NCBI RefSeq assembly: GCF_026210795.1
Contig: NC_089433.1
Coordinates: forward strand, 3,038,001-3,102,000
Source of the DNA: Rhizophagus irregularis
Taxonomy: Eukaryota
Length of the DNA: 64,000 bases
Reading direction: 5' to 3'
Shown: positions 7,776-48,574 of the stretch, in pieces
How positions within the stretch are numbered: the stretch's first letter is position 1
How the letters are laid out: every line of letters begins with the position of its first letter
The notes under the pieces: generated by a model
Seen by the model: only the letters and a program-made list of their open reading frames with translations
The model's database searches: none
Told to the model about the DNA's origin: nothing
Program-made: the position numbers and the translations under genes

Positions 7776-8440
7776 AAGGTACTAAAGGTGAATTTAAATC
7801 TTCAATTTGTCAGGTAAAAATTATTTAATATTGGGTTCTAAATTAACAGTTTATTTTTTATATTTTAATTCTTATTTTGTGTTGTGTTTTAGAATAAAAC
7901 ATTAAAGAATTTGAGATCAAATATGTCAAAAAGCAACAGAAATTGTATCTTGGTAATTACATTTTTAGTTAGCATTTCTTTTTAATAATGTATCGATATT
8001 TATTAATCATGTTGCTTTAACAACAATTTTAGCATTGGTAGATAATTCCAATGACGAGTCTTCTGTGATGAATATCAAAAACTTGATTAGTTGAGATTTT
8101 ATAGACTAAATTTACATAGTTATTCTAATGATTATCGGCGATTTTATTCACATAAAAGATTAACTAAAAACGGATAAATAAAATAAGAATCACGTAAATT
8201 ACAACAACATTAAAAAAATTATTTATTAGTAATTAATAGAAGTGGTATAAAGAGTACATAAGCTAAATAAAATAATATCACTCTTTTCATTTTTTGATTT
8301 TAGATGAATTTTTATTAATGTTATCTATATCAAATCAAAAGTATCGAACTTGATATTATAATGACCAGTCTTCTTGATAGACTTACAGTCAACTCTCTTT
8401 ATAGTCACACATTTGGAACAGTCCATATTTGGTGATTATT

Positions 8441-9354
8441 TTACAAGTGTATTGTACGTTTAGTGGCCACTACTTTCCGCACCCTTTATTGAAGGTTATG
8501 GAGGTAGGTCGTTCATTGCATCATCCTAAGGTTGCTTGTCTAAACCTCTTCAAAATCCTACGATTAGTTTCGTCAAAATTTTACTATAGATTTATTATAG
8601 TTTCGGCAGAGTTTCGGCAGTTTCGGCATTTATAATAAGTTTCAGCAGTTTCGCCTTTCTCCAAAGTTTCACCAGTTTTTTAATATAACTTTAATATAAT
8701 TTCGGCAGAATTTCGCTTTTTGGCGAAACGCCATCTTGCCTAAACCCTAGGTTTCGGCAAGCAACCTTACATCATCCTCACTAGATCATGATGTAACCAT
8801 CCCCGCCCTTTTAACAGGGACAATTTAACACCACAACCGAAATGCAAGGACATATCCCAGGGACCCGAAGGCCTTCGAATCTGCTGAACACCACCCTACT
8901 CATCCTTTAATCCGTTGCATGATACTGTAATGGCTACTATTATAAACCCCTTACCATTACTACTGTCACAGAGGACTTTCGTCAGATAACCTTCAAACAT
9001 CTAGACCCCTTCTATACCACCATATTAGGTACCAGGTCTCACTCAAATGCCACTACAGCCCGCGATTACCCACCACTGATAGTACAGTTGTAATCCCCAA
9101 GTGGTATACTTATGTAGTGACCACCTAGACAGTAAGCTTGTAGATGTTACCCAGGATCATCCCTTATGGTGGGTATCAACCACCAGGAATCACCAACCAG
9201 GGCCCATCAGAGAAGGGAATCGAACCCAATCACCAAGCTATTTGTCTGTGCACGAACACTATGGTTGGCCTAAGACCTAACAGAAGGTCTAACTACCACT
9301 AAGACATTGCGCCCTCAGCTTTACCATCTAGGACAACCATCTAGCCATTACTGA
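8441..9354 (-). mobile_element. SINE-like repeat, 5'-truncated copy A1
   Basis: Highly similar to 9372-10040. Flanked by the direct repeat CCATATTTGGTGATTAT (8423-8439; 9355-9371). Interrupted by a MITE. Confidence 0.65.
8527..8769. mobile_element. hAT-type MITE (family 1, copy 1)
   Basis: TIR TAAGGTTGCTTG...CAAGCAACCTTA; 8-bp TSD CATCATCC; the empty site is visible in the paralogous repeat at 9451-9458. Confidence 0.92.
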
Positions 9355-10191
9355 CCATATTTGGTGATTATTTTACAAGTGTATTGTACGTTTAGTGGCC
9401 ACTACTTTCTGCACCCTCTTCTGAAGGTTATGGAGGTAGGTCGTTCATTGCATCATCCTCACTAAGTTATGATGTAACCATCCCCGCCACCTTCAACAGG
9501 GACAATTCAACACCACAACCGAAACACAAGGACATATTCCAGGGACCCGAAGGCCTTTGAATCTGCTGAACACCACCCTACTCGTCCTTTAATCCGTTGC
9601 ATGATACTGTAATGGCTACTATTATAAACCCCTCACCACTACTACTGTCACAGAGGACTTTCGTCAGATAACCTTCAAACATCTAGACCCTTCCATACCA
9701 CCATTTTAGGTACCAGGTCTCACTCAAAGGCCACTACAGCCCGCGATTACCCACCACCGTTAGTACAGTTGTAATCCCCAAGTGGTATACTTATTGTAGT
9801 GACCATTTGGACAGTAAGCTTGTAGGTGTTACCCAGGATCATCCCTTATGGTGGGTATCAACCACCAGGAATCACCAACCAGGGCCCATCAGAGAAAGGA
9901 ATCGAACTCAATCACCAAGCTATCTGTTCTGTGCACAAACACTATGGTTGGCCTAAGACCTAACAGAAGGTCTAACTACTACAAAGACATTGCACCCTCA
10001 GCTTTACCATCTAGGACGACCATCTAGCTATTACTGACCCCAAGTGGTATCGTAGAGTGACCACCTGGACAGGAAGTCCCCCCCAAGGTATAGTAGTGAC
10101 CTTAAGGACAGGACTGCGCACATGCCAATGGCCTCATGGGGAACGTTAGAAGGATACCATGACCCTTAATTGAAATGTGCAGCCTAACCGT

Positions 10192-11281
10192 TGAGATCCC
10201 CCAATTCCCTCTGTCATCAATTTACAGAGTTGCCACATCGAACGGGCATTCCCATGGTCGAACGAACGAATGAACGAACGAACGAATAAACGAACGAACG
10301 AATAATCGACGGCATAATTAACAAATAATATAATCAACGCACAACAACAATATACAACAACATTCTTGGTTCACAACATAAATAGCGTTAGTAATATAAA
10401 ACATTAAACGATATAAAATAAAATTTACTTCTCTAAATTTTCCCCAAATTATATCCACTTTTACCTTTAATTTCAAACTTCGATAGCTCTCGCTACGAAT
10501 TATTACTTTTCAAAAGTGTACATTTAATTCATCTTAAAATTTCCATTTTTATTCAATTAAAATTAATTAAGCGAACATTAATTAAAGTTTAGGGCGAACC
10601 TATTACCTTTAATTAAAATTATACTTCATTAACAAATAATTAAATGAAACTTATATTTTTATTGAGTTCTGTGGATGAGAACTGTGGAATTACTTTGAAT
10701 TCCGCTCTCTATATATACAATTTTTATGCTACTTTCTATACTATCTTTTATGTTCTTTTTACATATTATCTTTGAACTATTTTTCTAATATACTATCTAT
10801 ATTTTAAATACGCTATCTTTTAATATGCTATCTTTTAATATGCTATCTTTTTATATATGTTCTTTTTAATATATTATCTTTTACGTTCCATCTTTATACT
10901 ATCTTTTTATATTATCTTTTACATTATTTTGTGTTCTTTAATCTTTCTGACATTATTCTATATGTTCTTTTAATTCGCTTTATGTGTTTTGCTTATAATC
11001 TATCTTTTGTGGCTTATAATTATTCTTTCTTATCGTTCTTATTGTTAAAGATTGCTAAGCCGCAATTGATCGACTCTATTTATCCTATTGGTTCCTTGTC
11101 AATCATTCAATAAATATTACATCATGTAGATCATTACTCTTCCTAAATGTTTATCCTTTTCGGCTAATTATTTATCCATCTACGCCAATCTATAATTAAT
11201 TTGTTCGTTCTTAATATTTAATAATTACATTTGGTGGTTGAATTTTATCATCTTTTCGTGCTTGATATTCGACCGTTTACA
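10192..11281 (-). repeat. 3' LTR
   Basis: Direct repeat of 20024-21113; I noticed only two substitutions. Preceded on the minus strand by the purine tract GAAGAGGGGGA (11285-11296). Confidence 0.97.
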
Positions 11282-11357
11282 TTATCCCCCTCTTCGCTAT
11301 TTGTGACCTCACAAATAACTTTAATAGAATCGAACTCGTGTCTTATCCATAATAATT

Positions 11358-12582
11358 TTAATCGAATCGAACTCGGGTCTTATCGAATACCTCTTTTCCT
11401 TTAATTACTATTTTTGGTGTAAATCTCCCCCGATCATAAAATTTCTTTAGCCATTCTCCATTTTGTGGTGTCCTTAGTATTCTTCCGTCCAATTCTTTGA
11501 GTTTGTACGCTCCATTTCCAAATTCTTCGTGAATTAAATATGGTCCTTTCCATTTGTTCTGTAATTTTCCAGACCATTGTTTCTCTCTCCATGCTTCATA
11601 TAATAATACTTTTTCTCCTATTTCAAATTTAGGTTTTCTAATTCCTTTTTTGTCATGTTGTTGTTTTTGTCTCTCTTGAGCTTCTTCCACATTATCTTTT
11701 ATTTTTCTTTTTATTACTGGTAGCTCCTCAATTAGTATTTTTACTCTATCAGCTAATGTTATCTTATTTTCATCTTTATCTAATGGTAATTTCGCTCTTC
11801 TTCCATATGTTGCATAAAAAGGTTTAATCTTCGTTGATGATTGCTTCTTTGTTCTATATGCAAATAGTACAGATGGTATATGTTTATCCCAATTTTCTTC
11901 TCCTAATTTGGCTAATCCTTCGCATAAAGTTTTATTGAATCTTTCGACCAAACCATTTGTTTGTGGCCTATATGGTGTACTTAATCTATGATTTATTCCA
12001 CACCTTTCTACCAATTCTTCCATCATTCTATTGTTAAAGTGAGTCCCTCTATCACTAATTATTTTCTTTGGACACCCATGTCTACAAATTATGTCCCTCC
12101 AAATAAATTCTACTACCTCTTTCGCTGTAGCTTCTTTTAGTGGTGCGGCTCGGCCATTTTGTAAAATAATCCATTGCTACTACAATGTACTTATTTCCCT
12201 TTTCTGTCTCTTTTAGTGGTCCAACTATATCTATCCCAATCATCTCGAATGGTCCATTTATCTTTATCGGCATTAATTCGTTCTTTCCTCTTGGTTTTCC
12301 TCTCATTTGACAATTCCAACATGTTTTTACATATTCTTCTACATCTTCTTTCATATTTTTCCACCAATAATTTTCTTTTATTCTATCTAATGTCGCTTCT
12401 ACTCCAAAATGTCCTGATAATTCGTTATCATGCATCATGTACATCAATCCTTCGTATTCATAATCCCTGATTACTCTAAATTTGTTTTGTCCTTTTACTC
12501 TATATAGAATTCCTTCTTTCAATTCATATTTATTCTCATTTTCAATATTGTCAATTATTCTCTTGTAATTATTTTCTTCCAT
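11358..12582 (-). CDS. Retroviral-type integrase (HHCC + DDE), split by a frameshift near 12150
   Basis: H-x6-H (HDNELSGHFG), CWNCQ, GIDIVGPL, DYFTKW, STPYRPQTNGLVERFNKTL and a GPY motif (WKGPY). ORFs 12082-12582 and 11358-12026. Confidence 0.93.
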
Positions 12583-12642
12583 AATACCTCTTTAATTGAT
12601 TTCGCTTCTAAATTTGTTATTTTCGTTATGTGTTCTGTATTT

Positions 12643-14724
12643 TTAGTTCTGTGCTCTTCTCCATTTCTCCACCTCTTTAAATACTTTTCTCCAACTACTA
12701 TTGTCATTTTTAACTTTTACTCGACTGTATCTTTTAGTATCTTTGTACACGCCCTGATTTTCTTCAAACATTCTAACCATGTCCAAATATTCATCCTTCT
12801 TTAATGTTGGATATGATGATTTTTCCGTTTTCTTTGTTTCTCTTCCAATGTAATTTTTCCAACATACGTCGCCATCTTTTTCTAAAAATATCACTATTGA
12901 TTTATCTATTGTTTCTTTCAATCTGAATATTTCTTTTTCCATCTCATGATTTCCATGTGGAGTAATTAATCCTCTGTCAAAACTTTTCATCTTTTGATAA
13001 TAATATTCACAATATGGTGATTTGTCCAAAATTATTATATCTGTATCTTCGTCATATTCTAACATTCTTCTGTTTATTTGTTCCACTACTTCTTTTCTAA
13101 ATTTCCATTCCGTCTCCATTTTTGATTCATAAAATTCATCTTTGTCTTTTCTTCTTCTTTTATAAGTATTGAATCTTACTTTTAATCCTTGTTTTTCCCA
13201 TTCTTTAATTAAATTTTGTACTATACTTGTTTTTCCTAATCCGTCTACTCCGTCGATTATTACTATTTCTGGTTGATCCTCTACTATCTTTAATAACCTA
13301 CTTAATGCGTCGGCGTTCATATTTTCTTTTCCCGACCTATGTATTACTTCAAAATTATATTGCTGTAATTCCATCACCCATCTTGCTCTTTTTCCTTTTG
13401 GTATCTTTGCATTCATTAATCCTTTTAATGCACTGTGATCTGTTATTACTTTAAATTTTCTATCGATTAAATATTTATGAAAATGTTGAATTCCCCAAAC
13501 TATTCCTAAACATTCCAATTCTGTTATCGGATAATTTTCTTCTGCTGGTAATAAACTTCTACTCGCATATGCTATTACTACTTCTTTTCCCTTTTCATCT
13601 TTTTGACTTAATACTGCACCTAATCCTTTTCCTGATGCATCTGTTATTAATAGAAATTCTTTCTTCCAATCTGGATGTCGTAATATCGGATATTGTATTA
13701 GCTTTTCTTTTAATTTTTCAAATGCTTCTTGTTGTTCTTTTCCCCAAATAAAAGGTACTCCCTTCTTTCTCAAATCACTTATTGGTCTAGCTATCTTTGA
13801 AAAGTTTTTCACAAATTTTCTGTAATATGAACAAAGTCCTAAAAATGATCTTACTTTTTTCACTGTTGTCGGTGCCTTCATTTCTTTTATCTTTTCTATC
13901 TTTTTATCGTCTGGCCTTAATCCATCATTTCCTACTATATGTCCTAAAAATTCTATGTTTCTTTTCAAAAATCTACATTTCTTTAATTTTATTATTAAAT
14001 TATTCTCCTGTAACTTCTTTAATACTTTTTCCACATGTTCCATATGGTCTTTTAAATTCTCTGAATATATCATAATATCGTCAATATATACTACTACAAA
14101 ATCATTTATGTATTCTTCTAATATTTCATCCATTAATCTTTGAAATGTTGCTGGTGCATTCGTTAAACCGAACGGCATTACATTATACTCAAATAATCCT
14201 TTTGAACATACAAATGCTGTTTTTTCTTTGTCTTCTTCTTTCATTTCTACTTGATTAAATCCTGCCGCTAAATCTATACTCGAAAACCATTTTGCTTTCC
14301 TGTATTTATCTAGTAATTCATCCATTCTTGGTAAAGGAAAACTATCCATTATAGTTATCTTGTTTAACTTTCTGTAATCAATACAGAATCTATATTTTCC
14401 CGTTTTCTTTCCTGCTAATGTAACCGGTGAACTCCATGGACTTTTTGATTTCCTTATCCTTCCTTGTTTTAACAATTTATCCACTTCTTCGCTTATAAAT
14501 TTTGCCTTTTCATCTGTTTCTTTGTATCTTCTTTGCTTTATTGGTTCTACCCCCTCTTTTATTTTTATCTCATGTTGCGCTGCTTTCGTTCTTCCTTCTA
14601 TCTCTTCGTCATATTCCAAAATATCTTGGTATTCTAATAGTAATTTTACCATATTTTCCCAAATTGGTTCTTCTACTTTCCCTATACTTAGTTTTTGCAT
14701 AAATTTTCCACTTGGTTCGAGCAT
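12643..14724 (-). CDS. pol: Pol: reverse transcriptase + RNase H + C-terminal P-loop NMP/thymidylate-kinase-like domain
   Basis: RT motifs RFCIDYRKLN, MPFGLTNAPATFQ and YIDD; RNase H motifs TDASGKGLGAVL, TDHSAL and NADALSR; then IVIIDGVDGLGKTS (Walker A) and IIILDKSPYCEYYYQ. Confidence 0.93.
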   Translation of the reverse strand: MLEPSGKFMQKLSIGKVEEPIWENMVKLLLEYQDILEYDEEIEGRTKAAQHEIKIKEGVEPIKQRRYKETDEKAKFISEEVDKLLKQGRIRKSKSPWSSPVTLAGKKTGKYRFCIDYRKLNKITIMDSFPLPRMDELLDKYRKAKWFSSIDLAAGFNQVEMKEEDKEKTAFVCSKGLFEYNVMPFGLTNAPATFQRLMDEILEEYINDFVVVYIDDIMIYSENLKDHMEHVEKVLKKLQENNLIIKLKKCRFLKRNIEFLGHIVGNDGLRPDDKKIEKIKEMKAPTTVKKVRSFLGLCSYYRKFVKNFSKIARPISDLRKKGVPFIWGKEQQEAFEKLKEKLIQYPILRHPDWKKEFLLITDASGKGLGAVLSQKDEKGKEVVIAYASRSLLPAEENYPITELECLGIVWGIQHFHKYLIDRKFKVITDHSALKGLMNAKIPKGKRARWVMELQQYNFEVIHRSGKENMNADALSRLLKIVEDQPEIVIIDGVDGLGKTSIVQNLIKEWEKQGLKVRFNTYKRRRKDKDEFYESKMETEWKFRKEVVEQINRRMLEYDEDTDIIILDKSPYCEYYYQKMKSFDRGLITPHGNHEMEKEIFRLKETIDKSIVIFLEKDGDVCWKNYIGRETKKTEKSSYPTLKKDEYLDMVRMFEENQGVYKDTKRYSRVKVKNDNSSWRKVFKEVEKWRRAQN

Positions 14725-14759
14725 CTTTTCCGTCTCTCTCTCTTCAGAGCCAAGACTTT

Positions 14760-15263
14760 CTATTTAAAATTCTGGTGCATTTTGAATACCTCTCCTTCAT
14801 CGTTGCTTTCATATTCTTCGTCATCCTCGCTCTCCTCACTTTCATATATTGCTTCTCTTTCATATCCTACTGGAATCGTTATTATTTCTCCTTGTTCTTC
14901 TATTCTTAAGGTATGATCTTCAAAATTTATTTTTGCATTATACAGCTTCCATATATCATTTCCCAAAATTAGATCCTCTTCTTCTAAATCGATTACTTCA
15001 ACTTCTTTTAGTATTTCTAATTCATCTTTGTATCTCAAAGTTATATTTGCCTTTCCTAACGCTGCTATCTTTTGCCCATTTGCTATTGTACATCTAAATT
15101 TACTTTTTCCAAATATAGGTATATTCAATCTCCTCCTTAATTTGTCTGTTATCACACTTACTGCTGCTCCAGTATCTATTATTACATTCACTAATTGATC
15201 TTCAACTTCTAATTCTGTTCTCATTGCTGTAGTTCTTTTCTCTTCATTTTTCATAGTTCCCAC
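14760..15263 (-). CDS. Retropepsin aspartic protease
   Basis: IIDTGAAVSVI and LILGND motifs; in frame with gag beyond a single TGA. Confidence 0.92.
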   Translation of the reverse strand: MGTMKNEEKRTTAMRTELEVEDQLVNVIIDTGAAVSVITDKLRRRLNIPIFGKSKFRCTIANGQKIAALGKANITLRYKDELEILKEVEVIDLEEEDLILGNDIWKLYNAKINFEDHTLRIEEQGEIITIPVGYEREAIYESEESEDDEEYESNDEGEVFKMHQNFK

Positions 15264-15272
15264 CGAGTGTAG

Positions 15273-18200
15273 TCAATTTTTCTCGTTTATGCTTCTTGGT
15301 CTATATGTTCCTTCTCTCAATTGTTTATGATACTTAGTATTCTCATTTATCATTTGTCCAATTGTTATATTCGCTCTACAATTTTTCACGTCTTCCACAA
15401 TATCGTAAGGTGGTATTCCATCAGTTAATCTCGGTCCATATTCTCTGGGCTTTCCTGTCCCTGATGGCTTTGTTCTAACCCAATTTCCAAATTCATCTTG
15501 CCGCATTCCAGGGTAAAATGCTTTGCCTTCTTTTGTGAACATTGGTTTATAAAATCTTCCATCTTTTGTCATGGGTCGCCGACCATAATTATAATCTTCT
15601 GGTCCTATTGGATTATCCCAATTTTGACTATCTTTGTATACATTATTTTGTTCTGTCCTTTCGGGCGTATATCTTGGTGTTGTTGTTCCACTTGGTATTT
15701 CTCTATCATCCATTCTATTTCCCGCTTCTCTTAATTCTTCTTGTAAATTTCCTTCTTCATTATTATTTTTATATCCCACTACTGGATTCGTCCTTCTTGT
15801 TTGTCTTCTTGTCTTTACTGCGTTATCTTTTGCGTATAATTCATTATGATAATTTAATTCCCTATCTTCATAATCATCGTAATAACCTTGTGTATAATAC
15901 ATTTCACCGTATTGTGGTTCCTCATCTTCATATCCATTATAATCATATTCTTCTTGATCATAATACTCGTCCATCATATTCACTCCTACATTCCTTCTTT
16001 TCTCTGGACACTCTCTTGAATAATGACCAGCTCTACCACATGTATAGCATGTCGGTACTCTTTTTTGTAATGACTGATTTCTTTGAATTGGTTGATTTCT
16101 TTGCATTGGTTGGTTTCTTTGCATTGGTTGGTTTCTTTGTGGCAATCGCCTATAGCTCTGACTCGCTAAATTTCTTAATCTTTCATTCTCATCTTCTAAC
16201 ATCTTAATTTGTAACTTCGCAAAACTGTCTGCTAATTCATCTACACTTACCCCTTTATTATTCCTTACATTCCCTTGAACAATAGGTTCTTGTCTTCTTT
16301 GTTCATCATTAATTCCTTTTGGTTGTACTTTATCTGTTAATGCTTCTAAACCTCTTTCTACGTTTTTTGCTATCTGAAATGTTGCATTTAGATCTGCTGG
16401 ATTTCCCATTACTACGTCTTTAGTAAAGTCCGGTTTTAATCCTCTAATAAAAATTCTCTTTTGCTGATTTGCTGCTACTGCTGCATTACCTCCCGCTCTC
16501 TTTAACATATATTTAAATCTCGTAAGGTATTGAGTTACATTCTCGTCTCCCTGTCTAATCTTTTCTAATTGTTCTAGCCATCTATCTTTAATTTCATCAC
16601 TTGCATACTTTCCAATTATTCTTACTCTTAATCTTAAATTATGATCTCCATTAACATTCCAATCGACAATATTTACTCCTTCAGTCTTTAACCAATCTGC
16701 TGCTCCTCCCATTAATTTCGCTTTTGCTAATCTAAATCTCTGTGCATCATCATTCCCTAAACCATTTGCTGTAAATGTCTCCTCAAATTTATCTGCCCAT
16801 TCTTCTGGATCTTCTCCACTGGTACCATAAAATACTGGTATTTCCACAATAGCTCCCCTATTTGCGTTTAAATTTCCTATTGCATTAGTATTCGCTTGAA
16901 CTTCTCCTTGTAATCCTGTCAATGTTACTGGTGGTAATGCTAAATTGTTCCAATCTGCCCCAATATCATGATTATACATAGTATTCATTAATGCTCTTAG
17001 ATTTGCCCTGAGTTCATCTCTTGATGCTGCCATTGTTATCTTTGGTTTTATTGGTGGTACTGGTGTTATTGGTATTATAGGTGTTTTCTTTAATTCTTTG
17101 TTTTCCTTTTTGCTTTTTGATTTTTTACTTGAGCCAATTTCAGGTCCTTTTATATCCTCTTCCACTTCATCTTCATCATCTATTGGATTTTCTTTTTCAA
17201 TATCTTTTTCACATTCTATGCAAGTTTCTTTTCCAATTTTGAATTCTTTCTTTAATCTTTCAATTTCACATCTTTCACATTCTTTTGTGTTTTCAACTCT
17301 CCATTGTAATATTTGTTCATCTAATTTTTCATCTTCAAGATTCCATATTGTTAAATATTTCTTCATAAATTCATATGTTGTTATTATCTTTGCGGTTACT
17401 CCAAATTTTCTTATTTTTTCGATTTCCGTTATTTCTACATCATATCCCATCCTTTTCAAATCCATTCTAATTATTTCTTCGAATATCTTTGTTGTTTCTG
17501 TTTCTTCAACATTATTGGATTCAATAGATTCATCAGATTCCTCATCTGACATTTCTTCATTTTTACTAATTGGTAAATTTCCTTCTTTCTCATCGTCTGT
17601 TTCCGTTATAGTATAGCTTCTTGGTGTATCATCACTATCTGTTTCATCTATATTTAATTGTTCAAACCCTCTAATCTTATCATAAACTTTTTCAACTATC
17701 TCTTTTTTAATTCCCCAACCATGTTCACGAACTCTTATGTGCATTGTGTGCAACATTAATCTAATTTTTTGTTTGAACGCTTCTATCTTTTCTGTTGACT
17801 CATCTTCTTTTAATTCAGCTTCTTCATATAATATATTTTTGTATCTTCTAATAGTGCTATCCTTACATTCTATAAAATTTGTTATAGCTTCTTTATACCA
17901 TTCATAAAATTCCCCAAATCTTATATTCACATCCCAATCTTCCAAAATATAACCATATCTTATTAATTCCTCATTCCCTATCAATCTGTCCATTGTTTCA
18001 TCTTCTTTATCATTTTCTATACAATCTCTCACGATCACTATTATTATTATCTTTAATCCTTTTTCTCTTAATACTGGTTGTTTCAAGTATCTTATCGATT
18101 CGACCATTACATCTAATGCATCTCTAGTCCTTCCTTTTGTATAATTATTTCTTTCTTCACTATCTATACTTAATAAATTTAATAACGCTCTTACAGTTTC

Positions 18201-18407
18201 TGCATTATAATCTCTTATCGTATATTCAAATTTTTGCAATATTTTCCAAAATTTCTTGAAAACTTCTGGTGTATCTCTTATTGGATAACATGTTTCACAT
18301 GTTATATTTTCTCCTCTTAATTCGTCTATATCTACATTTCCGATATTTTCGTCATGTCTTAATTTGTGGTTCTCGTAATCAACCCTCCAAGTTTCATACC
18401 ATTCCAT
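15273..18407 (-). CDS. gag: Gag with long N-terminal extension and CCHC zinc knuckle
   Basis: IPVFYGTSGEDPEEW...GAADWL, IRQGDENVTQYLTRF...FIRGL capsid-like motifs; CYTCGRAGHYSREC knuckle. Confidence 0.9.
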   Translation of the reverse strand: MEWYETWRVDYENHKLRHDENIGNVDIDELRGENITCETCYPIRDTPEVFKKFWKILQKFEYTIRDYNAETVRALLNLLSIDSEERNNYTKGRTRDALDVMVESIRYLKQPVLREKGLKIIIIVIVRDCIENDKEDETMDRLIGNEELIRYGYILEDWDVNIRFGEFYEWYKEAITNFIECKDSTIRRYKNILYEEAELKEDESTEKIEAFKQKIRLMLHTMHIRVREHGWGIKKEIVEKVYDKIRGFEQLNIDETDSDDTPRSYTITETDDEKEGNLPISKNEEMSDEESDESIESNNVEETETTKIFEEIIRMDLKRMGYDVEITEIEKIRKFGVTAKIITTYEFMKKYLTIWNLEDEKLDEQILQWRVENTKECERCEIERLKKEFKIGKETCIECEKDIEKENPIDDEDEVEEDIKGPEIGSSKKSKSKKENKELKKTPIIPITPVPPIKPKITMAASRDELRANLRALMNTMYNHDIGADWNNLALPPVTLTGLQGEVQANTNAIGNLNANRGAIVEIPVFYGTSGEDPEEWADKFEETFTANGLGNDDAQRFRLAKAKLMGGAADWLKTEGVNIVDWNVNGDHNLRLRVRIIGKYASDEIKDRWLEQLEKIRQGDENVTQYLTRFKYMLKRAGGNAAVAANQQKRIFIRGLKPDFTKDVVMGNPADLNATFQIAKNVERGLEALTDKVQPKGINDEQRRQEPIVQGNVRNNKGVSVDELADSFAKLQIKMLEDENERLRNLASQSYRRLPQRNQPMQRNQPMQRNQPIQRNQSLQKRVPTCYTCGRAGHYSRECPEKRRNVGVNMMDEYYDQEEYDYNGYEDEEPQYGEMYYTQGYYDDYEDRELNYHNELYAKDNAVKTRRQTRRTNPVVGYKNNNEEGNLQEELREAGNRMDDREIPSGTTTPRYTPERTEQNNVYKDSQNWDNPIGPEDYNYGRRPMTKDGRFYKPMFTKEGKAFYPGMRQDEFGNWVRTKPSGTGKPREYGPRLTDGIPPYDIVEDVKNCRANITIGQMINENTKYHKQLREGTYRPRSINEKN

Positions 18408-20009
18408 CGTTGTAGTCGTTCATCCAGAATCTTAACTAAAATCTCACCTCCTTTTATATATATATTTCACTCTCATCGTTTCTATTTTCAATCTTCTATG
18501 TTTCTATTTTCAATCTTCTAAACATTCTTTTATCTTTAAACAGATTGCTCCTTTCAATCTTTAAATTCCATCTTTCAGTTTTATATATTTACTACTCCAT
18601 ATTCTATTATTAATTTTTACTGCGCCTTAAAATTTCAAAAAAAAATTTTCCTAAGTTCACGATCTCCTCAGACTGCGGAGGTTTTTACCGCGCCATAAAA
18701 TTTATCTTTTATCACCGATATCCATAATTTCACATGTCACATTCTAAAATTTATCTCCTATCACCGTGATTCATAATTTCACTTATCACATCTTTTTGTC
18801 ACCAAGATCCATAATTTCACATATCACAAACTCCAAAATTTTCATAACTTTTAAAGTTCGCGAATTTCCAATCTTTCTTATCGTCCACATAAATCCTTCT
18901 TACTATATATTCTATATTATATAAATTGATCTATAATACACAAAATGTCGTTCTTTTCAGATAAATGTCCTTCTTTTCAAATAAATGTTCTTTTCAGATA
19001 AATATTCTTTTTCAAATAAATGTTCTTCTTTTAAATAAATATCCTTCTTTTCGGATTTTACTCTATTATTAAATACTGCACGTAATATTCATTATACGGC
19101 TCGTTAATGTGTAAATATCCTTCTATTTTATCTTCTTTTAACGGAACATCGTAATGAGAGCGTGAACTAGGACACTACACCAGGAACCTTCATCTGAAAT
19201 GTAGCCTAGAACCTGTAACAATACGACGTATCCGTCTTTTTCTTCTTTCGTTGGCCGACTCGTCTCTTAACGGGTGAATCTAACCTTCCAAAATCCGGTT
19301 TCAAAAGTCATCAGCTATCCATAAAACTCATCTAAACCAACTTATCTTTCCTCAAATTAGTGGACCTATACTGGGCTTATCTCTATCTTTTTCCCATTGG
19401 GTAAAAGCATGATAGTTTACAGGTTTGTCCCATTTTATCCATTCAATGTTTCTTGATAGTAGGTGTCTTTACAATTTTCATTCCCGTCCCCAAAGCAATT
19501 TGCGCATTATTGAGCTGGATATCCAGATTTGACGTAACCCATACGTTATAATCTTTAATGTCGAAGAATAAAAATTTTCCAATCTTGAGCATTTATCCAG
19601 AATTCAAACTCAGAGGTAACCCATACCACACAGATGAACCCCAGATAATACATTGGTGTTCTCCCATTATTAATCTTTATTCCAAAATTCATCTTTCACT
19701 TCCCCATCTCCTTATGAAATTTCTCAAGTACTTTATTCCCGAAAGAAATATTCTTGTGCTTTCTATCGATTAAGTGATTACTTGCACAACAACAAACTCC
19801 AATCTTTTACCTTTTCAAGTTTTTAACTCAATTAAATCCTTATTGATTTATTTGGTTCCTTTTGAACTCGTTAAAACCTGAAATCTAAAAATAAATTCTA
19901 AAATAAAACATTGATTAATAATACCTATCAGTGACTTACTAACGAAATTAAATTTTCATATTCATTATAATAATAATAATCATGTGATGATGATCATTTC
20001 CTTTCTTGC

Positions 20010-20021
20010 GAGCATGCACCA
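20010..20021 (-). promoter_or_regulatory. Primer-binding site of the Gypsy element
   Basis: TGGTGCATGCTC lies 2 nt downstream of the 5' LTR and is complementary to a tRNA ending ...TGCACCA (possibly tRNA-Gly; not verified). Confidence 0.7.
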
Positions 20022-20023
20022 TA

Positions 20024-21113
20024 TGAGATCCCCCAATTCCCTCTGTCATCAATTTACAGAGTTGCCACATCGAACGGGCATTCCCATGGTCGAACGAACG
20101 AATGAACGAACGAACGAATAAACGAACGAACGAATAATCGACGGCATAATTAACAAATAATATAATCAACGCACAACAACAATATACAACAACATTCTTG
20201 GTTCACAACATAAATAGCGTTAGTAATATAAAACATTAAACGATATAAAATAAAATTTACTTCTCTAAATTTTCCCCAAATTATATCCACTTTTACCTTT
20301 AATTTCAAACTTCGATAGCTCTCGCTACGAATTATTACTTTTCAAAAGTGTACATTTAATTCATCTTAAAATTTCCATTTTTATTCAATTAAAATTAATT
20401 AAGCGAACATTAATTAAAGTTTAGGGCGAACCTATTACCTTTAATTAAAATTATACTTCATTAACAAATAATTAAATGAAACTTATATTTTTATTGAGTT
20501 CTGTGGATGAGAACTGTGAAATTACTTTGAATTCCGCTCTCTATATATACAATTTTTATGCTACTTTCTATACTATCTTTTATGTTCTTTTTACATATTA
20601 TCTTTGAACTATTTTTCTAATATACTATCTATATTTTAAATACGCTATCTTTTAATATGCTATCTTTTAATATGCTATCTTTTTATATATGTTCTTTTTA
20701 ATATATTATCTTTTACGTTCCATCTTTATACTATCTTTTTATATTATCTTTTACATTATTTTGTGTTCTTTAATCTTTCTGACATTATTCTATATGTTCT
20801 TTTAACTCGCTTTATGTGTTTTGCTTATAATCTATCTTTTGTGGCTTATAATTATTCTTTCTTATCGTTCTTATTGTTAAAGATTGCTAAGCCGCAATTG
20901 ATCGACTCTATTTATCCTATTGGTTCCTTGTCAATCATTCAATAAATATTACATCATGTAGATCATTACTCTTCCTAAATGTTTATCCTTTTCGGCTAAT
21001 TATTTATCCATCTACGCCAATCTATAATTAATTTGTTCGTTCTTAATATTTAATAATTACATTTGGTGGTTGAATTTTATCATCTTTTCGTGCTTGATAT
21101 TCGACCGTTTACA
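20024..21113 (-). repeat. 5' LTR
   Basis: Direct repeat of 10192-11281. Confidence 0.97.
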
Positions 21114-21119
21114 CCGTAC

Positions 21120-22537: not shown

Positions 22538-23514
22538 TTTGCTATGTTTACGGCCAGACCACCCATTGCCTCTTATGAGACTAATCTCGGGTCTGTGTCC
22601 TATTATCTTCAATGGACAACCATTATACCGAGTACTTAATTTCTTCAGGTAACAACACCACTATAGAAGACATCCCCCATCAAGCCATTTTAGGCTGATC
22701 TGAAGCTAGGTACACGCCGTTTACTCATCCTTAATCCATTGCATGATACTGGTACTCAATTTATTTTACGACCTTTAGAGAGCACCTACTTTCATGGAGG
22801 ACTTTCGACAGGTAACATCAACCATCTAGTACCCTTCCATACCACCATTTTAGGTATGAGGTCTCATTCAAGGGCTACTACAGCCCGCGATTACCTAGCA
22901 CCGATAGTACAGTTGTTTACTCCAAGTGGTATACTTTGTAGTGACCACTCAGACAGGAAGTAGCAGGCATCTGTCCAGGATCACCCCTTATGGTGGGTAT
23001 CAACCACCAGGGATCACCAACCAGGACCCAAAGAGTAGGGAATCGAACCCCATAATCATGCTACCTGTTCTGTGCACGAACACCTTGGTTGGTCTAAGAC
23101 CTAACAGAAGGTCTAACTACCACTAAGACATTGCACCCTTAGCTTTACCATCTAGGACAACCATCTAGCCATTACTGACCCCAAGCGGTATCGTGGAGTG
23201 ACCACCCGGACAGGAAGTCCCCTCCAAGGTATAGTAGTGACCTCAAGGACAGGACTGCGCACATGCCAATGGCCTCATAGGGAACGTTAGAAGAACACCA
23301 TGACCCTTAGTTGAAATGTGCGGCCTAACTGTACACACTAATTCACCATGATGCAGTCCAACTACGCTAATCCCTGTACCTTCACGCTATTGGTTGTAGC
23401 ATCCGCAGTAAAATTCGTTTAATTTCCGTGATCAGCGGAATTGAACCTGCGACCTCACCATACTCAGGCTTAACGAGGGTCTCAGTGACTAACCACTGAG
23501 ATAGGGTGATCAAC
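22538..23514 (-). mobile_element. Uninterrupted ~1-kb tRNA-headed SINE-like element, copy B
   Basis: Minus-strand head TGATCACCC-TATCTCAGTGGTTAG (A-box-like)...GCAGGTTCAATTCC (B-box-like)-GCTGATCA; no ORF; flanked by the direct repeat TTATAAATCGTCYTTTTAC. Confidence 0.7.
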
Positions 23515-23798: not shown

Positions 23799-25819
23799 AT
23801 GACTACAGACAAGAAAAAGAAAAACAACAAGTCTAACAACGATACTACTTCTAAACGTCCTGCCTCTAGCTCTCCAACTGGCAACGTTTCTGGTCAAGGT
23901 TCCTCTATGTCTGGCCCTTCGAACACTCCACCTTCGACCACCTCTACTAATAAACGTACCAGAGTCAGTGCTGAAGACTCTGTCATGGATGTTGATAAAC
24001 CTCTCACGCCTCCTGGCCCTGTTGAGACAACTTCCGCTGAGAAACCTTCTCAACCCGATGCCTTTTCTCTCGATGCTTCGCAACACGCCCCTGCTAACAA
24101 CAACGATAAAGGCAAAAGCCCTGAAATTACTTCCGCAGTCTCTTTCCCTGAACGTGCTGCCTCTCCAGACGCGTCCCAAGCTGCAGTGCAATCTCAACCT
24201 ACACTTTTCTACGCCTCGGCCGCTCCTAATGACGTCGATGGCTTTTGGACTCACTTCGCTTCGAACCGCGACGCGTGCGACGCGGTTGATCGACAACTTT
24301 CCTTGTTCTCCTCTTATGGTAGTCGTGCCACGTGTAGTGGATCCAACGATTTGAAGAGGATCATCGTCCACTTCCGAAAAAGGATGATCTTGACACAGCC
24401 ACAGCTTCCCCTATGGAATCTTTGTTTGGCTTGCATTTCCATGCATATGATCCCCAGGCTATTAAGGCTGATGAACACGCGCGTACCCTGGTGGTTACCG
24501 ATATCCCCCTTTTTCTATCTGACGCTCTCTTGCGTGGTACCTTTTCTCGTTATGGCAATATTACTCGTTGCCATACCCGTTTATCTAAACTTTATCGTAC
24601 TGCATACATTACTTTTGAATCTACTGGTGCTTTGCAGAACCTCGACTCTACCTGGGGCGTCCTTTGTGGAGGACATTGTTTGCGAATTTGCCCCGCTACT
24701 TTCTCTCCTGACCAACGTGCTGAAAGACGCGCTTATGTTGCTTTACTTGCCGGTCTTCCGCGTGGTACTATAGCGGCCGATCTTGCTGAAATTGCCGATG
24801 AAATTTCCGCTAAATCTATCAATGTTCCCTTCTCTATGAATTCCTACAATCCCAAACCTTACGCCTATTGCCACTTTGCCTCTGAAACGGCTATGGAAAA
24901 TGCTAAATCTATTTCACGTGCCCTCAAGAAAGTTGGCCTTACCTGGCATTCTCCGGATGAAGTCACTTCTCTTTGTCATCGATGTGGTCGCCCTAATTGT
25001 AACCCTGATCGATGTGGTTCTTCATCTAGACCTAATCGCCCTTCTCGCCCTTGGCAATCTAATGACAAACTACGTGCTTTATATAACAAGCATCTGCCTC
25101 CTTCTCATCCTGCTAAACGACATAATCGTTTTGCCCGCCCTGATAACAATAATGATGGACAAAGCCGTACCAATGCTTCTCGCCATCGTTCTAAATCCAG
25201 ACCTAATAACCGACAACAATCTCGTTCTCGTTCTCAACGCCGACCATGGAATCGCGATAATCTCAATAATAATAATAATGATCAACGTCGTCGCATTCCT
25301 GATGAAAAGGAACTTGATTATTATATTGATGGCATGGATGTTACGTACCCTGCTCCTCCTACTGTACTTACTGATTGGAAATCTATTGGTGCTGCTCTTG
25401 AAAAAGTAGTTGAAGAATTAGCCCTTCTTACCACACAATTTGCTACCATGAACAGCCGCATCACTAATTTGGAATCTGCTATGGCTGCTCGTACTCCTAT
25501 TCCTGGACCTTTTGTCACTAAACCTCCTTCCTACATCCCTTCCTCTATGCAAGGATGGGATGATACAGTGAATCGAACTGATAATAATATCCTCGTTGAT
25601 GTTAATTCTCCCCCTTTGCAATCAACAAGTGGTTTTTCCCCGATTCCTCATTTTGCTCCCATTCCACCTTCCAACGTCGCTCCTTCCTCCCCTATTGATA
25701 TGGAACAGCGTCTCTCCTCTCTTTCCGATACTGTTGCCTCTTTGGCTGGCTCGATTAAAGAAGGAATCCAACAAAACAACCTCATCTTAGCTCGGCAACA
25801 AGGCCAAGCTAATCAATAA
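23799..25819 (+). CDS. LINE ORF1 (RRM-like + Cys/His knuckle-like + coiled coil), one frameshift in an A-run near 24380
   Basis: ORFs 23799- and 24413-25819 join by adding one A at CGAAAAAGG. RRM-like motifs TLVVTDIP...FSRYGNI...AYITF; CHRCGRPNC. Confidence 0.8.
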
Positions 25820-25868
25820 TTGTTCTCTTTTTCCCCCTTCTTTATTACCGATTTATCAGTGTGTAATA

Positions 25869-28800
25869 ATGATGGACAACAATAAACATAATTTTTCCCC
25901 TCACCCCTCTCCCCTTATTAAATTTGGTCAATTAAATGTTAATGGTTTATGTTCCCCAGTTCGACAACAACATTTGCTTAATTTTTTTCTCCACTCTTCT
26001 TTTGGTGCTTTATCTATTAATGATACGCGTCTTTCCCCTTCAAATGCTAAATTTATTTTTAAAAATGAACACTCCCAACATCACTTTAAGTCCTATTGGG
26101 CTTGTTCATCTTCTTCTTCTCGCCCTCATGATGGTGTTGGTATTTTGTTACGTAATCCTCTTCATAAACATGTTCAAACGATTGATCCTTGGAACGGTCG
26201 ACTTCTTAAATTAGACTTGTTCTTTCATCAAACTAAAATTTCTATTATTTCCATATATTATCCCCCTCTGGTTCTGTTCATCAATCTATTTGCAATGATC
26301 TTATTGCCAAACTTCTTTCTTGGCTCGATTATGCTCGAGCTAATAATTATTTTGTAGTTATTCTTGGCGACTTCAATGTTGATGCAATCGCTCATTCTAA
26401 TTATTCATCTAATCATTTTAAGCTTCTTCGCTTGCTTTCTTCTCGGTTTTTTACTGATCATCAAGCTCACTCCTCTACAAATGGTCCTGATCCCACCTTC
26501 TTTCATGATAATGGATCTTCGAGACTGGATTATATCTGGTCTTCACCTGGTTTTCCTGCTCCTGGTCTTTTTTCGCAAGTGATTACTTGCCCCAATCTCC
26601 TTGATCGTCCTTTTACAGATCACAAAGTTCTCACAACTGTTTTTGACTTCAGTTCTTGCCTGGCTATCTTGGCTAAATCTCGTCTTAAACAAAAAAAGGA
26701 AATGCGTACTATTTTCTCTTACGCTTCTACTTCAGTTGAACAATGGAATAATTTTACCACTGAAGTAGATGATTCTCTTGGAGTATATTTAGATAGACAA
26801 TATCATCCCAATTTTGATTTCTCCTCTCTTTCTCTTGATCGTATGTGGCATGCTTTGAAAGCTGCCATAATTAGTGCTGCAATTGAAACCTTACCCTTTC
26901 AAAAAGTCTCCAATACACACCGACATTCGTACTCTCCTGAATTAACTAAACTTATTGCTATTAACAAGTTTTTAGATCGATTTTTATATCGCCTTACTAC
27001 TCGTCGTTCTAATCGGCCTACTCAAATTGCGCAAATGACTGCCGCTTTGCCCTCCCATCTTGAAAATCTTGCATCCTTACTTCCTGATTACTCAGTTCCT
27101 ATCTATTCTACAACCCCTGCATCTGTATTTAAATCGTTTTTACGATTACAGAAGAATTTAGTTTCTGCCTTTTTATCTACTAAATTCGCCCAACACCTTA
27201 CGGACTCAGTGGAATATTATACTGCACTACGTGATGAACACTTTTCGAACTCGCTCAGCACCTTTATCGATTCTGCCTTATCAGTAGAAAAACGTTCAAT
27301 TGTTCTTGACCGTGTTTTAGTCGTTTTGGACTCAACTCCTACTTTATTAACGGATCCTTCGGATATTAAACATGCGGCTGTCTCTCATTTTCAATCAATT
27401 GTTTCTCCTCCGTTGGTCCACTATTCTTCCATCACTTCATTTCCCGCCCGATGGCAACAAGCTTACACTCCTCTTGCAAATGTGTCTGCTTCATTATATG
27501 ATCCTGTTTTGGCGCCTATTTCCCTACAAGAATGGTCTGCTGTGATTTCCTCCATGCCAAATAACAAAGCTTCCGGCCCTTCAAAAATTTCTTATGAGAT
27601 GATTAAACACTTGTCCGGTGAAGCCTTGGATTTTTCACTTTTACTTGCCAATACTTGCCTTTCTCGTGGTGATATTCCTGCTGACTGGCGTGAAGCTGTG
27701 GTTTATCCTATTCCTAAACCTCATGAATTTGATGCTCAACTTAAGAACACTCGACCTATTACTCTTCTGGAAACAGTTCGAAAATGTGTAGTTAAGGTCG
27801 TCACGAATCGTCTCTCCAACATTCTTGCTGATAATAAAATTCTCCAAGGTGGTAACTTTGCTGGCTTACCTGGTGGTTCTACTGATGTCCCTATCAAAAT
27901 GCTGGATGCGATTATCCATCAACATAAACATGACTCTACTGATGATCAGGAACTATGGATCGTTTCTCAAGATATCTCTAAAGCTTTTGATTCTATGGAT
28001 TTAAATATGCTTAAATTAGCTTTAGATAGGTTACATATTCCTGCACTTTTAGTGCGATTTATTTTAAATCTTTTTACACGACGCAATAATAGGATAATTA
28101 CTTGTCATGGCGATACAGCTGCTTATAGAGTACGTGTTGGTATCGATCAAGGAGAAATCATTTCCCCTCTTCTTTGGGTTATTTATTTGGATCCCTTACT
28201 CACTGTTTTGAATCAAGAAGCACGAGATCCTTTTATTTTAAAATCTTCAGCTCTTTTAAATTACTCCCCACTTGAATTTGAACAACATTCTTTACCAATT
28301 TCACATTTAACGTTTATGGATGATTCTACACTTATTGCTTCCTCAAAATCTGGAATAGAAGACCGTCTTTCTATTACTGCTGAATTTTATACTTTAAATA
28401 ATGTTCAAGCCAATTCAGCAAAATATGTTCTTCTTTCATCCTCTTCGCCTTCTTCGGAGATTACTTTTGAACTTTCACCTTCCCTTTTAATTTCCGATAT
28501 ATCTCTTTCCCTTTCTTCTTTACCTCTTAAAACTTCATTTCGTTTTTTAGGAGTTTGGTTTTCTTTGTCCGCCTCTTCTGATTTTGTTCTGAAACAAGCG
28601 CGCTCCATGGTTAAAGATATGGCTGCTCTCTTGGGACCGAAGAAATTATTAGCACAACATGTGGCCTATCTCTATAATGCTGTCCTTCTTCCGCGATTGG
28701 AATTTCGTCTTCAAACTACCCTTTTCTCTGAAAGTACTATTCAATCAATAGTGAAGCCTATGTTTTCAGTACTTCGAAGAAAAGCTGGTCTTGCTGCGAC

Positions 28801-33968: not shown

Positions 33969-34212
33969 TAAGGTTGCTTGTCTAAACCTCTTCAAAATCC
34001 TACGATTAGTTTCGTCAAAATTTTACTATAGATTTATTATAGTTTCGGCAGAGTTTTGGCAGTTTTGGCATTTATAATAAGTTTCGGCAGTTTCGCCTTT
34101 CTCCAAAGTTTCGCCAGTTTTTTAATATAACTTTAATATAGTTTTGGCAGAATTTCGCTTTTTGGTGAAATGCCATCTTGCCTAAACCCCTAGGTTTCGG
34201 CAAGCAACCTTA
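33969..34212. mobile_element. hAT-type MITE (family 1, copy 3)
   Basis: Same TIRs and body as 8527-8769; 8-bp TSD ATTATAAA. Confidence 0.92.
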
Positions 34213-47792: not shown

Positions 47793-48034
47793 AAATGTAT
47801 ATTTTTTTATTAAGTTATAATAAAAATTAGAATTTACTTTAATTTTTAACATAAAAATTGTAAATAATAAAAAATTCGTAAATAAAAATAAATTTGCTTT
47901 CCCAAACTTAAAAAAAAAGGTGTTTATATAAAAGAAAAGGTGTTTATATTATTTTTGATTATTCAATAGTATCACATGCCCCTTGTATATGTTCTACTGC
48001 ATACGCAGTTTACAATCTCGTAAATTTTCAAAAC

Positions 48035-48400
48035 GGAATATTACGCAGGTTTACAGTCTCGTAAATTTTCGAAATATTTCAACCGTAATATTACGCAGGT
48101 TTACAGTTTCGTAAATTTTCGAAATATTTTAACCGTAATATTACGCAGGTTTACAGTCTCGTAAATTTTCGAAATATTTCAACCGTAATATTACACAGGT
48201 TTACAGTCTCGTAAATTTTTGAAATATTTCAACCGTAATATTACGCAGGTTTACAGTTTCGTAAATTTTTGAAATATTTCAACCGTAATATTACGCAGGT
48301 TTACAGTTTCGTAAATTTTCGAAATATTTCAACCGTAATATTACGCAGGTTTACAGTTTCGTAAATTTGCAGAATATTTTGACCATAATATTGCGTAAAT
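48035..48400. repeat. Subterminal 50-bp tandem repeat (about 7 copies)
   Basis: AATATTACGCAGGTTTACAGTYTCGTAAATTTTCGAAATATTTCAACCGT repeated head to tail. Confidence 0.93.
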
Positions 48401-48574
48401 CTTACGATATTGTAAACTTACGTAATATTTTAACCGTAATATCACATAAATCTTACGAAATTGTAAACTTACGTAATATTTTGAAATTTTTTGAAATATT
48501 ATGCCATAAACTTTCATAAACTTACAAAATCGTAAACTTACGCAATTTTTCGCGCTATAAAATTTCCTGATGTA

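Follow-up and report, generated by a model that had tools for sequence, protein, structure and literature searches.

A conserved kinase-like domain of predicted thymidylate kinase/deoxynucleoside kinase fold in the pol region of a Glomeromycota Ty3/Gypsy retrotransposon clade

A kinase-like domain behind RNase H in a Ty3/Gypsy element

The 64,000-nucleotide stretch of Rhizophagus irregularis DNA analysed here (NC_089433.1, positions 3,038,001 to 3,102,000; hereafter the window, in whose numbering all positions are given) carries a Ty3/Gypsy long terminal repeat (LTR) retrotransposon on its minus strand. Besides gag, protease (PR), reverse transcriptase (RT), RNase H (RH) and integrase (IN), this element encodes a kinase-like domain. 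A stop-to-stop frame of 706 codons (14763..12643) comprises RT, RNase H and then 215 further codons (13290..12646), which begin directly after ...NADALSRLL and end at a TAA stop (12645-12643). A first-pass annotation of the same letters had reported that the open reading frame (ORF) continues past NADALSR for 215 codons with a Walker A motif, LDKSPYCEYYYQ and VIFLE, and each of these was located on the minus strand. The P-loop, GVDGLGKT, follows the pattern G-x-x-G-x-G-K-[ST] and contains an Asp. The domain and its motifs are as follows.

12643-13290, minus: kinase-like domain closing the RT-RH frame at its C-terminal end (215 codons and the TAA stop)
13228-13251, minus: P-loop GVDGLGKT (Walker A with Asp), aligning to GIDGSGKT of Aquifex thymidylate kinase (TMPK)
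12994-13029, minus: LDKSPYCEYYYQ, with Lys90 replacing Arg, the counterpart of the TMPK DR-motif segment LDRFVLSTIAYQ
12880-12897, minus: strand IVIFLE, preceding GRE
12838-12846, minus: GRE with the invariant Arg150, a predicted lid arginine (from its invariance and the AlphaFold secondary structure)

The copy as a whole is young and structurally complete. The Ty3/Gypsy order gag (CCHC)-PR-RT-RNase H-IN is present on the minus strand, with the kinase sitting between RH and IN. The paired LTRs have TG..CA ends and differ by 2 mismatches over 1090 bp, which bears out the young age already read from their near-identity, and the target-site duplication CCGT borders them at 10188-10191 and 21114-21117. 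The remaining parts of the element are listed below.

10192-21113, minus: whole Ty3/Gypsy LTR retrotransposon, delimited by its LTRs and domain order
20024-21113, minus: 5′ LTR, 1090 bp, TG..CA ends, pairing with 10192-11281
10192-11281, minus: 3′ LTR, 1090 bp, mismatched to the 5′ LTR at 10687 and 10974
20008-20021, minus: primer-binding-site candidate TGGTGCATGCTCGC, 2 nt off the 5′ LTR, read directly from the sequence
15273-18407, minus: gag ORF with Retrotrans_gag, Ty3_capsid and a CCHC knuckle (Pfam), first ATG at 18407-18405
14760-15272, minus: aspartic protease (PR) ORF, gag-asp_proteas E 7.6e-9, in frame with gag behind its TGA
13291-14763, minus: RT-RNase H portion of the 706-codon frame, RVT_1 E 1.2e-44 and RT_RNaseH E 3.2e-37
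12082-12582, minus: first part of the integrase cistron, Integrase_H2C2 E 5.4e-22, starting MEENNYKRII
11358-12176, minus: integrase core and C-terminal part, rve E 1.9e-7, in another frame
11282-11297, minus: polypurine tract candidate ..GCGAAGAGGGGGATAA, adjoining the 3′ LTR, read directly from the sequence

A TGG start, as in the primer-binding-site candidate, is the typical complement of a tRNA 3′ end; no tRNA was matched to the candidate at 20008-20021, and Rfam and tRNA scans of the 64-kb window gave no matches. A leader of 1.6 kb separates this site from the gag ATG. The gag frame extends over 1048 codons from stop to stop (18419..15273) and ends with TGA at 15275-15273, followed by CTA; the first ~470 residues of gag are acidic, contain Cys and have no Pfam match. 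The RT-RH frame, with its first ATG at 14724-14722, is -1 relative to PR, and the first piece of integrase lies in a stop-to-stop frame at 12591..12082. The integrase core of the window copy shifts frame near 12148-12151, inside ..DYFTKWP.., directly after the Pro. A sibling contig (run X1) carries a single additional letter behind each of 12148 and 12151, so that the frameshift is either private to the window copy or an assembly error, despite the near-identical LTRs.

Fold, family resemblance and selection

An AlphaFold2 model of the domain, built with 18 sequences (predicted local distance difference test 85.6, predicted template-modelling score 0.82), has the strand-helix order of a P-loop nucleoside monophosphate (NMP) kinase. 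The predicted structure agrees with the three-layer P-loop NMP-kinase fold with lid, and with the deoxynucleoside kinase (dNK) fold. Foldseek returned 153 matches in the PDB at E<=0.001, led by a Giardia deoxyadenosine kinase (E 5.3e-7, template-modelling score 0.64); deoxyadenosine, deoxyguanosine (dGK) and deoxycytidine (dCK) kinases were found in the top group, and archaeal adenylate kinases and thymidylate kinases were further leading matches. The dNK and TMPK structural matches cover residues 6-214, lid region included. A match to the P-loop NMP-kinase fold, on which the first-pass annotation had made its proposal depend, was thereby obtained. Neighbours in the ESM Atlas, which we take as leads only, were small phage, archaeal and bacterial kinases.

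At the level of sequence profiles, the best score came from phrog_761 of the PHROGs collection, a family annotated 'thymidylate kinase' (E 1.7e-14, residues 9-210 against profile positions 21-214 of 362). This profile has no curated cut-off and its function is an annotation; it was matched by all 14 of 14 diverse members of the element family. Pfam Thymidylate_kin matched the window domain at E 4.4e-4 over profile positions 1-140 of 185 and was the most frequent Pfam family overall, with 9 of the 14 members at E<=0.01 (best 1.2e-6), while Pfam dNK was reached by 4 of 14 at the same threshold (best 3e-4). In a hidden Markov model (HMM) alignment of the family profile with Aquifex TMPK, three segments fall into register: the P-loop (liIidGvDgvGKtt / LIAFEGIDGSGKTT), a Phe-containing segment (lFRkevv / LFEASRS) and the strand-3 segment (iildKspYseyfYq / VILDRFVLSTIAYQ). 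The motif parallels to dTMP kinase that had been noted by eye are thus reproduced in the alignment.

Fifteen residues are invariant among 14 aligned members, namely P7, I11, D16, K20, R65, K90, Y93, Y98, I134, Y147, R150 and four others, and G17, G19, R47, F64, N73, D89 and P92 are nearly so. The conserved set therefore comprises the P-loop, the strand-3 Asp with its adjoining invariant Lys, and the lid Arg.

A region-restricted search (E<=1e-3, 1104 candidates) yielded 38 database proteins at 49-99% identity from R. irregularis, R. clarus and metagenomes, those at 94-99% being from Rhizophagus irregularis DAOM 197198. Their architectures are RT-RH-kinase, RH-kinase-IN and kinase-IN. A profile search added Glomus cerebriforme, and the named relatives belong to Rhizophagus and Glomus only. 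A scan of JGI metagenomes gave 27 loci, of which we counted the 19 with substantial matches (L003-L019, L021, L022), leaving out L023-L029, where the match is to the P-loop region alone or at 29% identity over 90 residues. The kinase domain is free of stops in all 19, as had been proposed for the window copy, and likewise in L020, which was examined separately. With the window domains as tblastn queries, RT-RH matched upstream of the kinase in 8 loci and IN downstream of it in 11. Fifteen loci among L003-L018 have a visible flank, and the order RT-RH, kinase, IN held in every one.

Substitution rates indicate that the domain is under selection. Many synonymous distances (dS) are near saturation, and we therefore quote ratios of nonsynonymous to synonymous substitution (dN/dS, Nei-Gojobori) for the closest pairs:

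window against L003: kinase 0.069 (dS 0.83), RT-RH 0.059
window against L004: kinase 0.061 (dS 1.44), RT-RH 0.093
window against L004: IN 0.095-0.159, PR 0.204

For the kinase, the 71 pairs with finite dS had a median of 0.16. Constraint on the kinase domain is thus no weaker than that on the core pol enzymes. These figures bear on the notion that it is an inert passenger, a captured host fragment without a role in transposition. The private integrase frameshift, through which the window copy would not be fully autonomous, and the deviation of the catalytic motifs from canonical enzymes would suit a passenger. Against it stand dN/dS values of 0.06-0.07 at dS 0.8-1.4, the open frame in every locus counted, 15 invariant residues including the P-loop Lys, and the retention of the domain, whether fused or as an independent ORF, in lineages of only 49-60% identity. 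On the selection data we therefore reject this hypothesis, which we consider extremely improbable; decay or absence in sibling copies, the other outcome that would have told against the original proposal, was not seen among them. Because 38 proteins at 49-99% identity, 19 loci, a confident fold and purifying selection coincide, the domain lies far beyond chance, and we are highly confident that a conserved, selected domain of TMPK/dNK fold belongs to this Gypsy clade.

Proposed function, relatives and origin

To place the domain among other proteins, we consider its relatives outside the clade. A phmmer search of 1.84 billion representatives gave 49 proteins at E<=1e-3. The 27 of these that were examined sort into four groups, made up of Gypsy-borne forms; fusions of Nudix and kinase (P0059, P0066 and others); P0058 and P0074, which are stand-alone and metagenomic; and P0081. 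The Nudix-kinase fusions lie in L020, a 13.9-kb metagenome contig (1-13947) that resembles a retroelement unit; its ORFs share one strand and its GC content is 26-34%. The ORFs are:

RS-rich gag tail
Gypsy/caulimo-type RT-RH (RVT_1 1.1e-26)
CCHC ORF
NUDIX plus kinase (NUDIX 6e-9)
Mrr_cat endonuclease-like ORF (2.3e-10)
second gag-like CCHC ORF

Neither an rve integrase nor long repeats were seen on this contig. Its kinase is 33% identical to the window domain; its RT has metagenome sequences and distant Mytilus matches as relatives, and the RT cluster has 128 members, all metagenomic. L020 represents a second, retroelement-like lineage, unrelated to the Gypsy clade, with the same rare kinase.

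We propose, with moderate confidence, that the Gypsy domain is a P-loop kinase of TMPK/dNK fold, kept by strong purifying selection in this Glomeromycota clade, that phosphorylates deoxynucleotides for the element's own reverse transcription. It would phosphorylate deoxynucleoside monophosphates (dNMPs) and thereby raise the supply of deoxynucleoside triphosphates (dNTPs); the benefit would be faster or more complete cDNA synthesis in a fungal cytoplasm with limiting dNTPs. Our main argument is that two unrelated retroelement lineages carry the same kinase, in one of them beside a nucleotide pyrophosphatase domain, which points to a free nucleotide as substrate. A thymidylate-like dNMP seems favoured because of the P-loop Asp, the TMPK-like register, the basic KRRR loop and the Phe that aligns to the Phe of TMPK, which we take to be the base-stacking residue.

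Several observations weigh against this proposal. Scores fall below curated cut-offs, with 20.4 bits for Pfam Thymidylate_kin against a cut-off of 27 and ~19-20 bits for the NCBIfam dTMP-kinase models against cut-offs of 83-193 (TIGR00041: 19.2 against 83.25); Pfam dNK (PF01712) gave no match for the window domain at E<=0.1, short of its own curated cut-off, and a single-sequence search of the PDB returned nothing below E 0.1. The phrog_761 label does not discriminate, because the host dNK-like protein P0144 matches it too (E 5.7e-17), and matches made with a predicted fold cannot tell nucleoside kinases, dNMP kinases and other small-molecule kinases apart. TMPK and dNK enzymes depend on the arginine in their DR(Y/H) or ER(S) motif. 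At this position, DR(Y/H) in TMPK or D/E-R-S in dNK, all 14 members have Lys90, LDKSPY of the element family aligning to LDRFVL of Aquifex TMPK. When the family was aligned by hhalign to the Glomeromycota dNK-like family, HETIEEW was paired with FNTYKRR, placing Asn41 opposite its Glu, and MDRTPLSS with LDKSPYCE, placing Lys90 opposite the Arg, so that both dNK residues are replaced. Weak matches extend to further P-loop families, among them KTI12 with 8 of 14 members (best 8.3e-7). One kinase step alone does not yield dNTPs, and RNA coverage is too thin to show expression of the window copy. Finally, PMC3002893 reports that yeast dNTP levels limit recombination-mediated Ty1 mobility, and draws no such link to cDNA amounts, which is loosely supportive at most. 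Judged by its sequence, the domain appears to be a distinct branch of the TMPK/dNK superfamily and a canonical member of neither enzyme family. The thymidylate/dNK-like identity first assigned to it accordingly holds for the fold, by AlphaFold and Foldseek, and does not extend to the curated Pfam and NCBIfam cut-offs or to the DR arginine.

Some of these departures could also be read as signs of another target. A kinase or nucleoside triphosphatase of the same P-loop fold might act as a polynucleotide 5′-kinase, as a KTI12/PSTK-type kinase that binds tRNA or RNA and targets the primer tRNA or genomic RNA, or as an ATP-dependent particle assembly factor. The replacement of the motif Arg by Lys and of the dNK-like Glu by Asn, the sub-threshold KTI12 matches and a match to the polynucleotide kinase family phrog_505 in 1 of 14 members point in this direction, as do invariant or nearly invariant basic residues (R47 in KRRR, R65, K90) that could bind nucleic acid and the covalent link to RT-RH in the window lineage. 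However, the KTI12 and other P-loop matches are confined to the first ~85 residues of the domain, whereas the dNK and TMPK structural matches run its whole length; the P-loop Asp and the F..DK....YQ register fit TMPK, and the distant homologues are fused to a Nudix hydrolase, of a class of enzymes that act on free nucleotides. We consider a target other than free nucleotides unlikely, and retain deoxynucleotide phosphorylation as the preferred reading.

As to origin, P0081 (E 1.3e-4) was the sole protein among the 27 examined with named cellular relatives. It is the metagenome twin of the dNK-like proteins P0144, P0145 and P0151 (R. clarus, R. irregularis, G. cerebriforme). The Rhizophagus/Glomus dNK-like protein (PF01712) has ~340 residues, including an N-terminal extension of ~125, and few copies per genome by contig counts; to our knowledge, most fungi lack dNKs. 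In a profile-profile comparison the element family matched the host dNK-like family with a probability of 97.7% (E 1.8e-12, 175 columns), the alignment starting inside the N-terminal extension. A scan of IMG/VR found two weak loci, at 26% identity over residues 6-102, whose ORF is a TMPK-like phage protein; it matched the element family in hhalign at E 2.5e-8 over 80 columns, as a single sequence and so not strictly comparable to 1.8e-12. Searching 50,697 phage records by tblastn with the domain gave no hit at E<=1e-3. Within the set examined, sequence comparison makes the Glomeromycota dNK-like gene the closest cellular relative, and the kinase was likely captured from such a host gene, which is a better donor candidate than a virus or bacterium. 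The host gene stays a candidate donor, because in the tree of kinase domains a branch 6.4 changes per site long leads to the dNK-like group.

This kinship raises the possibility that the domain has remained a dNK, salvaging nucleosides to dNMPs with the same benefit to the element. The closeness of the host family, the dAK, dGK and dCK structures in the top group of structural matches and the Pfam dNK matches in 4 of 14 members favour it. Yet Asn41 replaces the Glu of HETIEEW, the general base of dNKs; the P-loop Asp is typical of TMPK, the Arg-rich loop suggests a phosphorylated substrate, and Thymidylate_kin matches more than twice as many members as dNK does. Retention of the nucleoside kinase reaction is therefore improbable in our assessment, and a dNMP remains the substrate we prefer.

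With thymidylate kinase (PF02223; Aquifex aeolicus 2pbr/5xbh, S. aureus 4f4i) the element domain shares G-x-D-G-x-G-K-T, the LF-helix Phe, LD[R/K]......YQ and an Arg after strand 4 at the lid. It differs in scoring below the cut-offs given above, in its invariant Lys for the DR Arg and in having FNTxKRRR in place of the TREPGGT-type loop; moreover, thymidylate kinase is a cellular or viral housekeeping gene, whereas the element domain is encoded in retrotransposon pol. The dNKs (PF01712: human dGK 2ocp, dCK; P0144/P0145/P0151) are about 20-26% identical to it. Their Glomeromycota members seem to share a part of the N-terminal extension (W.YFN..E.L) with some element lineages, but they have Glu where the element has Asn, the DR(T/S) Arg where it has Lys, and a lid RGRNEE cluster where it has one conserved Arg, and a very long tree branch lies between the groups. 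The phage family phrog_761 scores best against the domain and, as noted, also takes in the host protein.

A retroelement that carries its own nucleotide enzyme has precedents. A dUTPase is present in pol of some retroviruses and LTR elements, and thymidine kinase, TMPK and dNMP-kinase genes occur in large DNA viruses such as herpes-, pox- and T4-like viruses. These follow the same logic of an own nucleotide-pool enzyme, although the enzyme family and reaction differ. In kind, then, the element is an LTR retrotransposon with an accessory nucleotide-metabolism enzyme. In the literature searched we found no description of such a kinase in an LTR retrotransposon or of such a Gypsy architecture, in keeping with the first-pass statement that no standard Gypsy architecture of this kind is known; the main text of two papers on R. 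irregularis transposons (PMC11075540, PMC8647823) contains neither 'thymidylate' nor 'P-loop'. Some fragments already bear automatic names, 'thymidylate kinase' at JGI and 'Thymidylate kinase-like domain-containing protein' in UniRef, and others are labelled 'hypothetical protein' or 'phosphodiesterase-like'. Annotation pipelines have hence picked up the domain, but within the reach of these searches no description places it in a retrotransposon.

Accessory enzymes of retroelements are rare and informative in that they reveal a limiting host resource, dUTPase being the classic case. For the coenocytic, obligately symbiotic Glomeromycota, a conserved module of this kind would suggest that dNTP supply limits retrotransposition. 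Further gains would be an assayable new branch of the TMPK/dNK superfamily, in which Lys stands for the motif Arg, an annotation marker for a large Gypsy clade and a natural system for stop-restart translation in a fungal retrotransposon. PMC11075540 puts repeats at about half of Glomeromycota genomes.

Cistron layout, expression and surroundings

The kinase had been described as lying between RH and IN. That gene order is confirmed, but it is not an internal domain of a polyprotein: the kinase ends its frame and IN is a separate cistron. In all 12 visible junctions (the window and 11 loci) the kinase frame terminates at a stop and IN then opens as its own ORF, with a conserved first ATG that begins M-[END]-[ED]-x-x-Y, for example MEENNYKRII in the window, MEEIEYDKIV in L004 and MNESEYREIY in L011. 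Measured from the first base of the kinase stop, the IN ATG is offset by -8, -5, -1, -1, +2, +3, +4 and +6 nt in 8 of the 12, including the stop/start overlaps TAATG in L004 and ATGA in L011 and L013; the remaining 4 have offsets of +63 (window), +138, +144 and +184 nt. In the window, two in-frame stops (12645-12643, 12594-12592) precede the IN ATG at 12582-12580. Across loci, IN occurs in all three frames relative to the kinase, which, together with the stop/ATG pattern, speaks against a single conserved frameshift or readthrough signal. From this arrangement, termination-reinitiation is the likely way in which IN is made, with splicing or a separate mRNA as less favoured routes. Caliciviruses, influenza B and fungal victoriviruses use UAAUG/AUGA stop-restart, to which the 8 overlapping or touching junctions are alike, whereas the ATG lies 63 nt downstream in the window and 138-184 nt downstream in three loci.

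The upstream boundary of the kinase also varies. The fusion to RNase H, for which the first reading had suggested a survey of related Gypsy families, is found in the window, L003, L004, L005 and L011, while in four lineages (L013, L015, L016, L018) the kinase is a separate ORF with its own ATG, overlapping as ATGA in L018. In the kinase-domain tree, fused L011 and separate L015 form a sister pair with support 95/96, and the fusion state therefore changed more than once. Most of this tree lacks resolution (5 of its 27 inner branches are starred, and the bootstrap had not settled), and we use it solely for this pair and for the long dNK-like branch. An N-terminal extension, W.D.KYF.DKEA.LL.L....LLKKL, is present in the separate and long-linker kinase lineages, and the window lineage is without it.

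Two further boundaries lie upstream. Between gag and PR the frame is the same, interrupted by one TGA followed by CTA CAC TCG GTG (15273-15275, minus). The TGA CTA CAC TCG GTG context is kept in L004 (about 370-375), where coding dS relative to the window is about 1.2-1.5. UGA-CUA favours readthrough, and the boundary looks like one of the readthrough type. PR and RT-RH are in -1 frames with a 4-nt overlap (14722-14790, minus; 870-930 in L004), and the stretch TTTTAAATAG(A/G)AAGTCTTGGCTCTGAAGAGAGAGAGACG(G/A)AAAAGATG differs hardly at all between the window and L004. A canonical -1 slippery heptamer was considered here and rejected, because TTTTAAATAG, read in the PR frame, does not fall into the usual X XXY YYZ phase. 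Gene models P0002/4/5/7/11 place a 65-nt GT..AG intron at this boundary (14789-14725), ending at the RT ATG. No spliced read supported the intron, and 4 reads (2 starts, run X21) cross 14708-14758 unspliced, too few to decide. A frameshift, reinitiation or an intron like that of Ogre elements may operate here.

Taken together with the origin considered above, this layout suggests a broader picture that we offer tentatively, as possible rather than probable: an LTR clade of arbuscular mycorrhizal fungi would have domesticated a host nucleoside/nucleotide kinase as a fifth pol function, a second retroelement lineage would carry this kinase fused to a Nudix hydrolase, and pol would be expressed not as a single polyprotein but through a chain of cistrons (gag, readthrough, PR, frame change, RT-RH-kinase, stop-restart, IN). 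Retroelements would then resemble large DNA viruses in being able to bring along dNTP-pool enzymes of their own.

For expression, we drew on roughly one quarter of the raw polyA RNA-seq reads in each of three runs labelled with the same organism. With a likeness threshold of 95%, 84-131 reads fell on 9.4 kb, mostly in one gag hotspot. This is the sole pile-up on the element (16966-17279, in the acidic first part of gag, depth 5-17 in the three runs), and some of its reads have adapter-like loose ends. Coverage of pol was mostly 0-3 deep. At 88% likeness, 38-40 reads fell on 11900-15400, with a depth of up to 7 over 13070-13186 in one run. No read joints were seen at any ORF boundary in the three runs, the numbers being too small to settle expression or splicing, and none of the indexed RNA runs contained the element. 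Reads that diverge upstream of 13260 encode ..LGRENKPQVI, the linker of the N-terminal-extension lineage, which suggests that kinase-bearing siblings are transcribed at a low level.

The 64-kb window is AT-rich and holds other repeats. Copies of one of them, 84-96% identical, lie on both flanks of the Gypsy element (8400-10190 and 22830-23460; also 8527-8747 against 33969-34189), and the element may therefore have inserted into or beside an older repeated element. Beyond it, the window contains the following.

24338-31255, plus: non-LTR retrotransposon (long interspersed nuclear element), with an RRM ORF (24338-25819) and a 1672-codon ORF (26237-31255) carrying endonuclease/exonuclease/phosphatase, RVT_1 and RNase_H
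49833-57470: Polinton/Maverick-like stretch, with an ORF at 49833-51521 weakly matching DNA_pol_B_2 and Endonuclease_7, an rve integrase at 53374-54447 (minus) and several large ORFs without Pfam matches
136-2452: tandem array of ~77-79-nt units, at least 18 copies, 60-86% identical
47972-48442: tandem array of a 50-nt unit, 7 overlapping register copies, 74-94% identical

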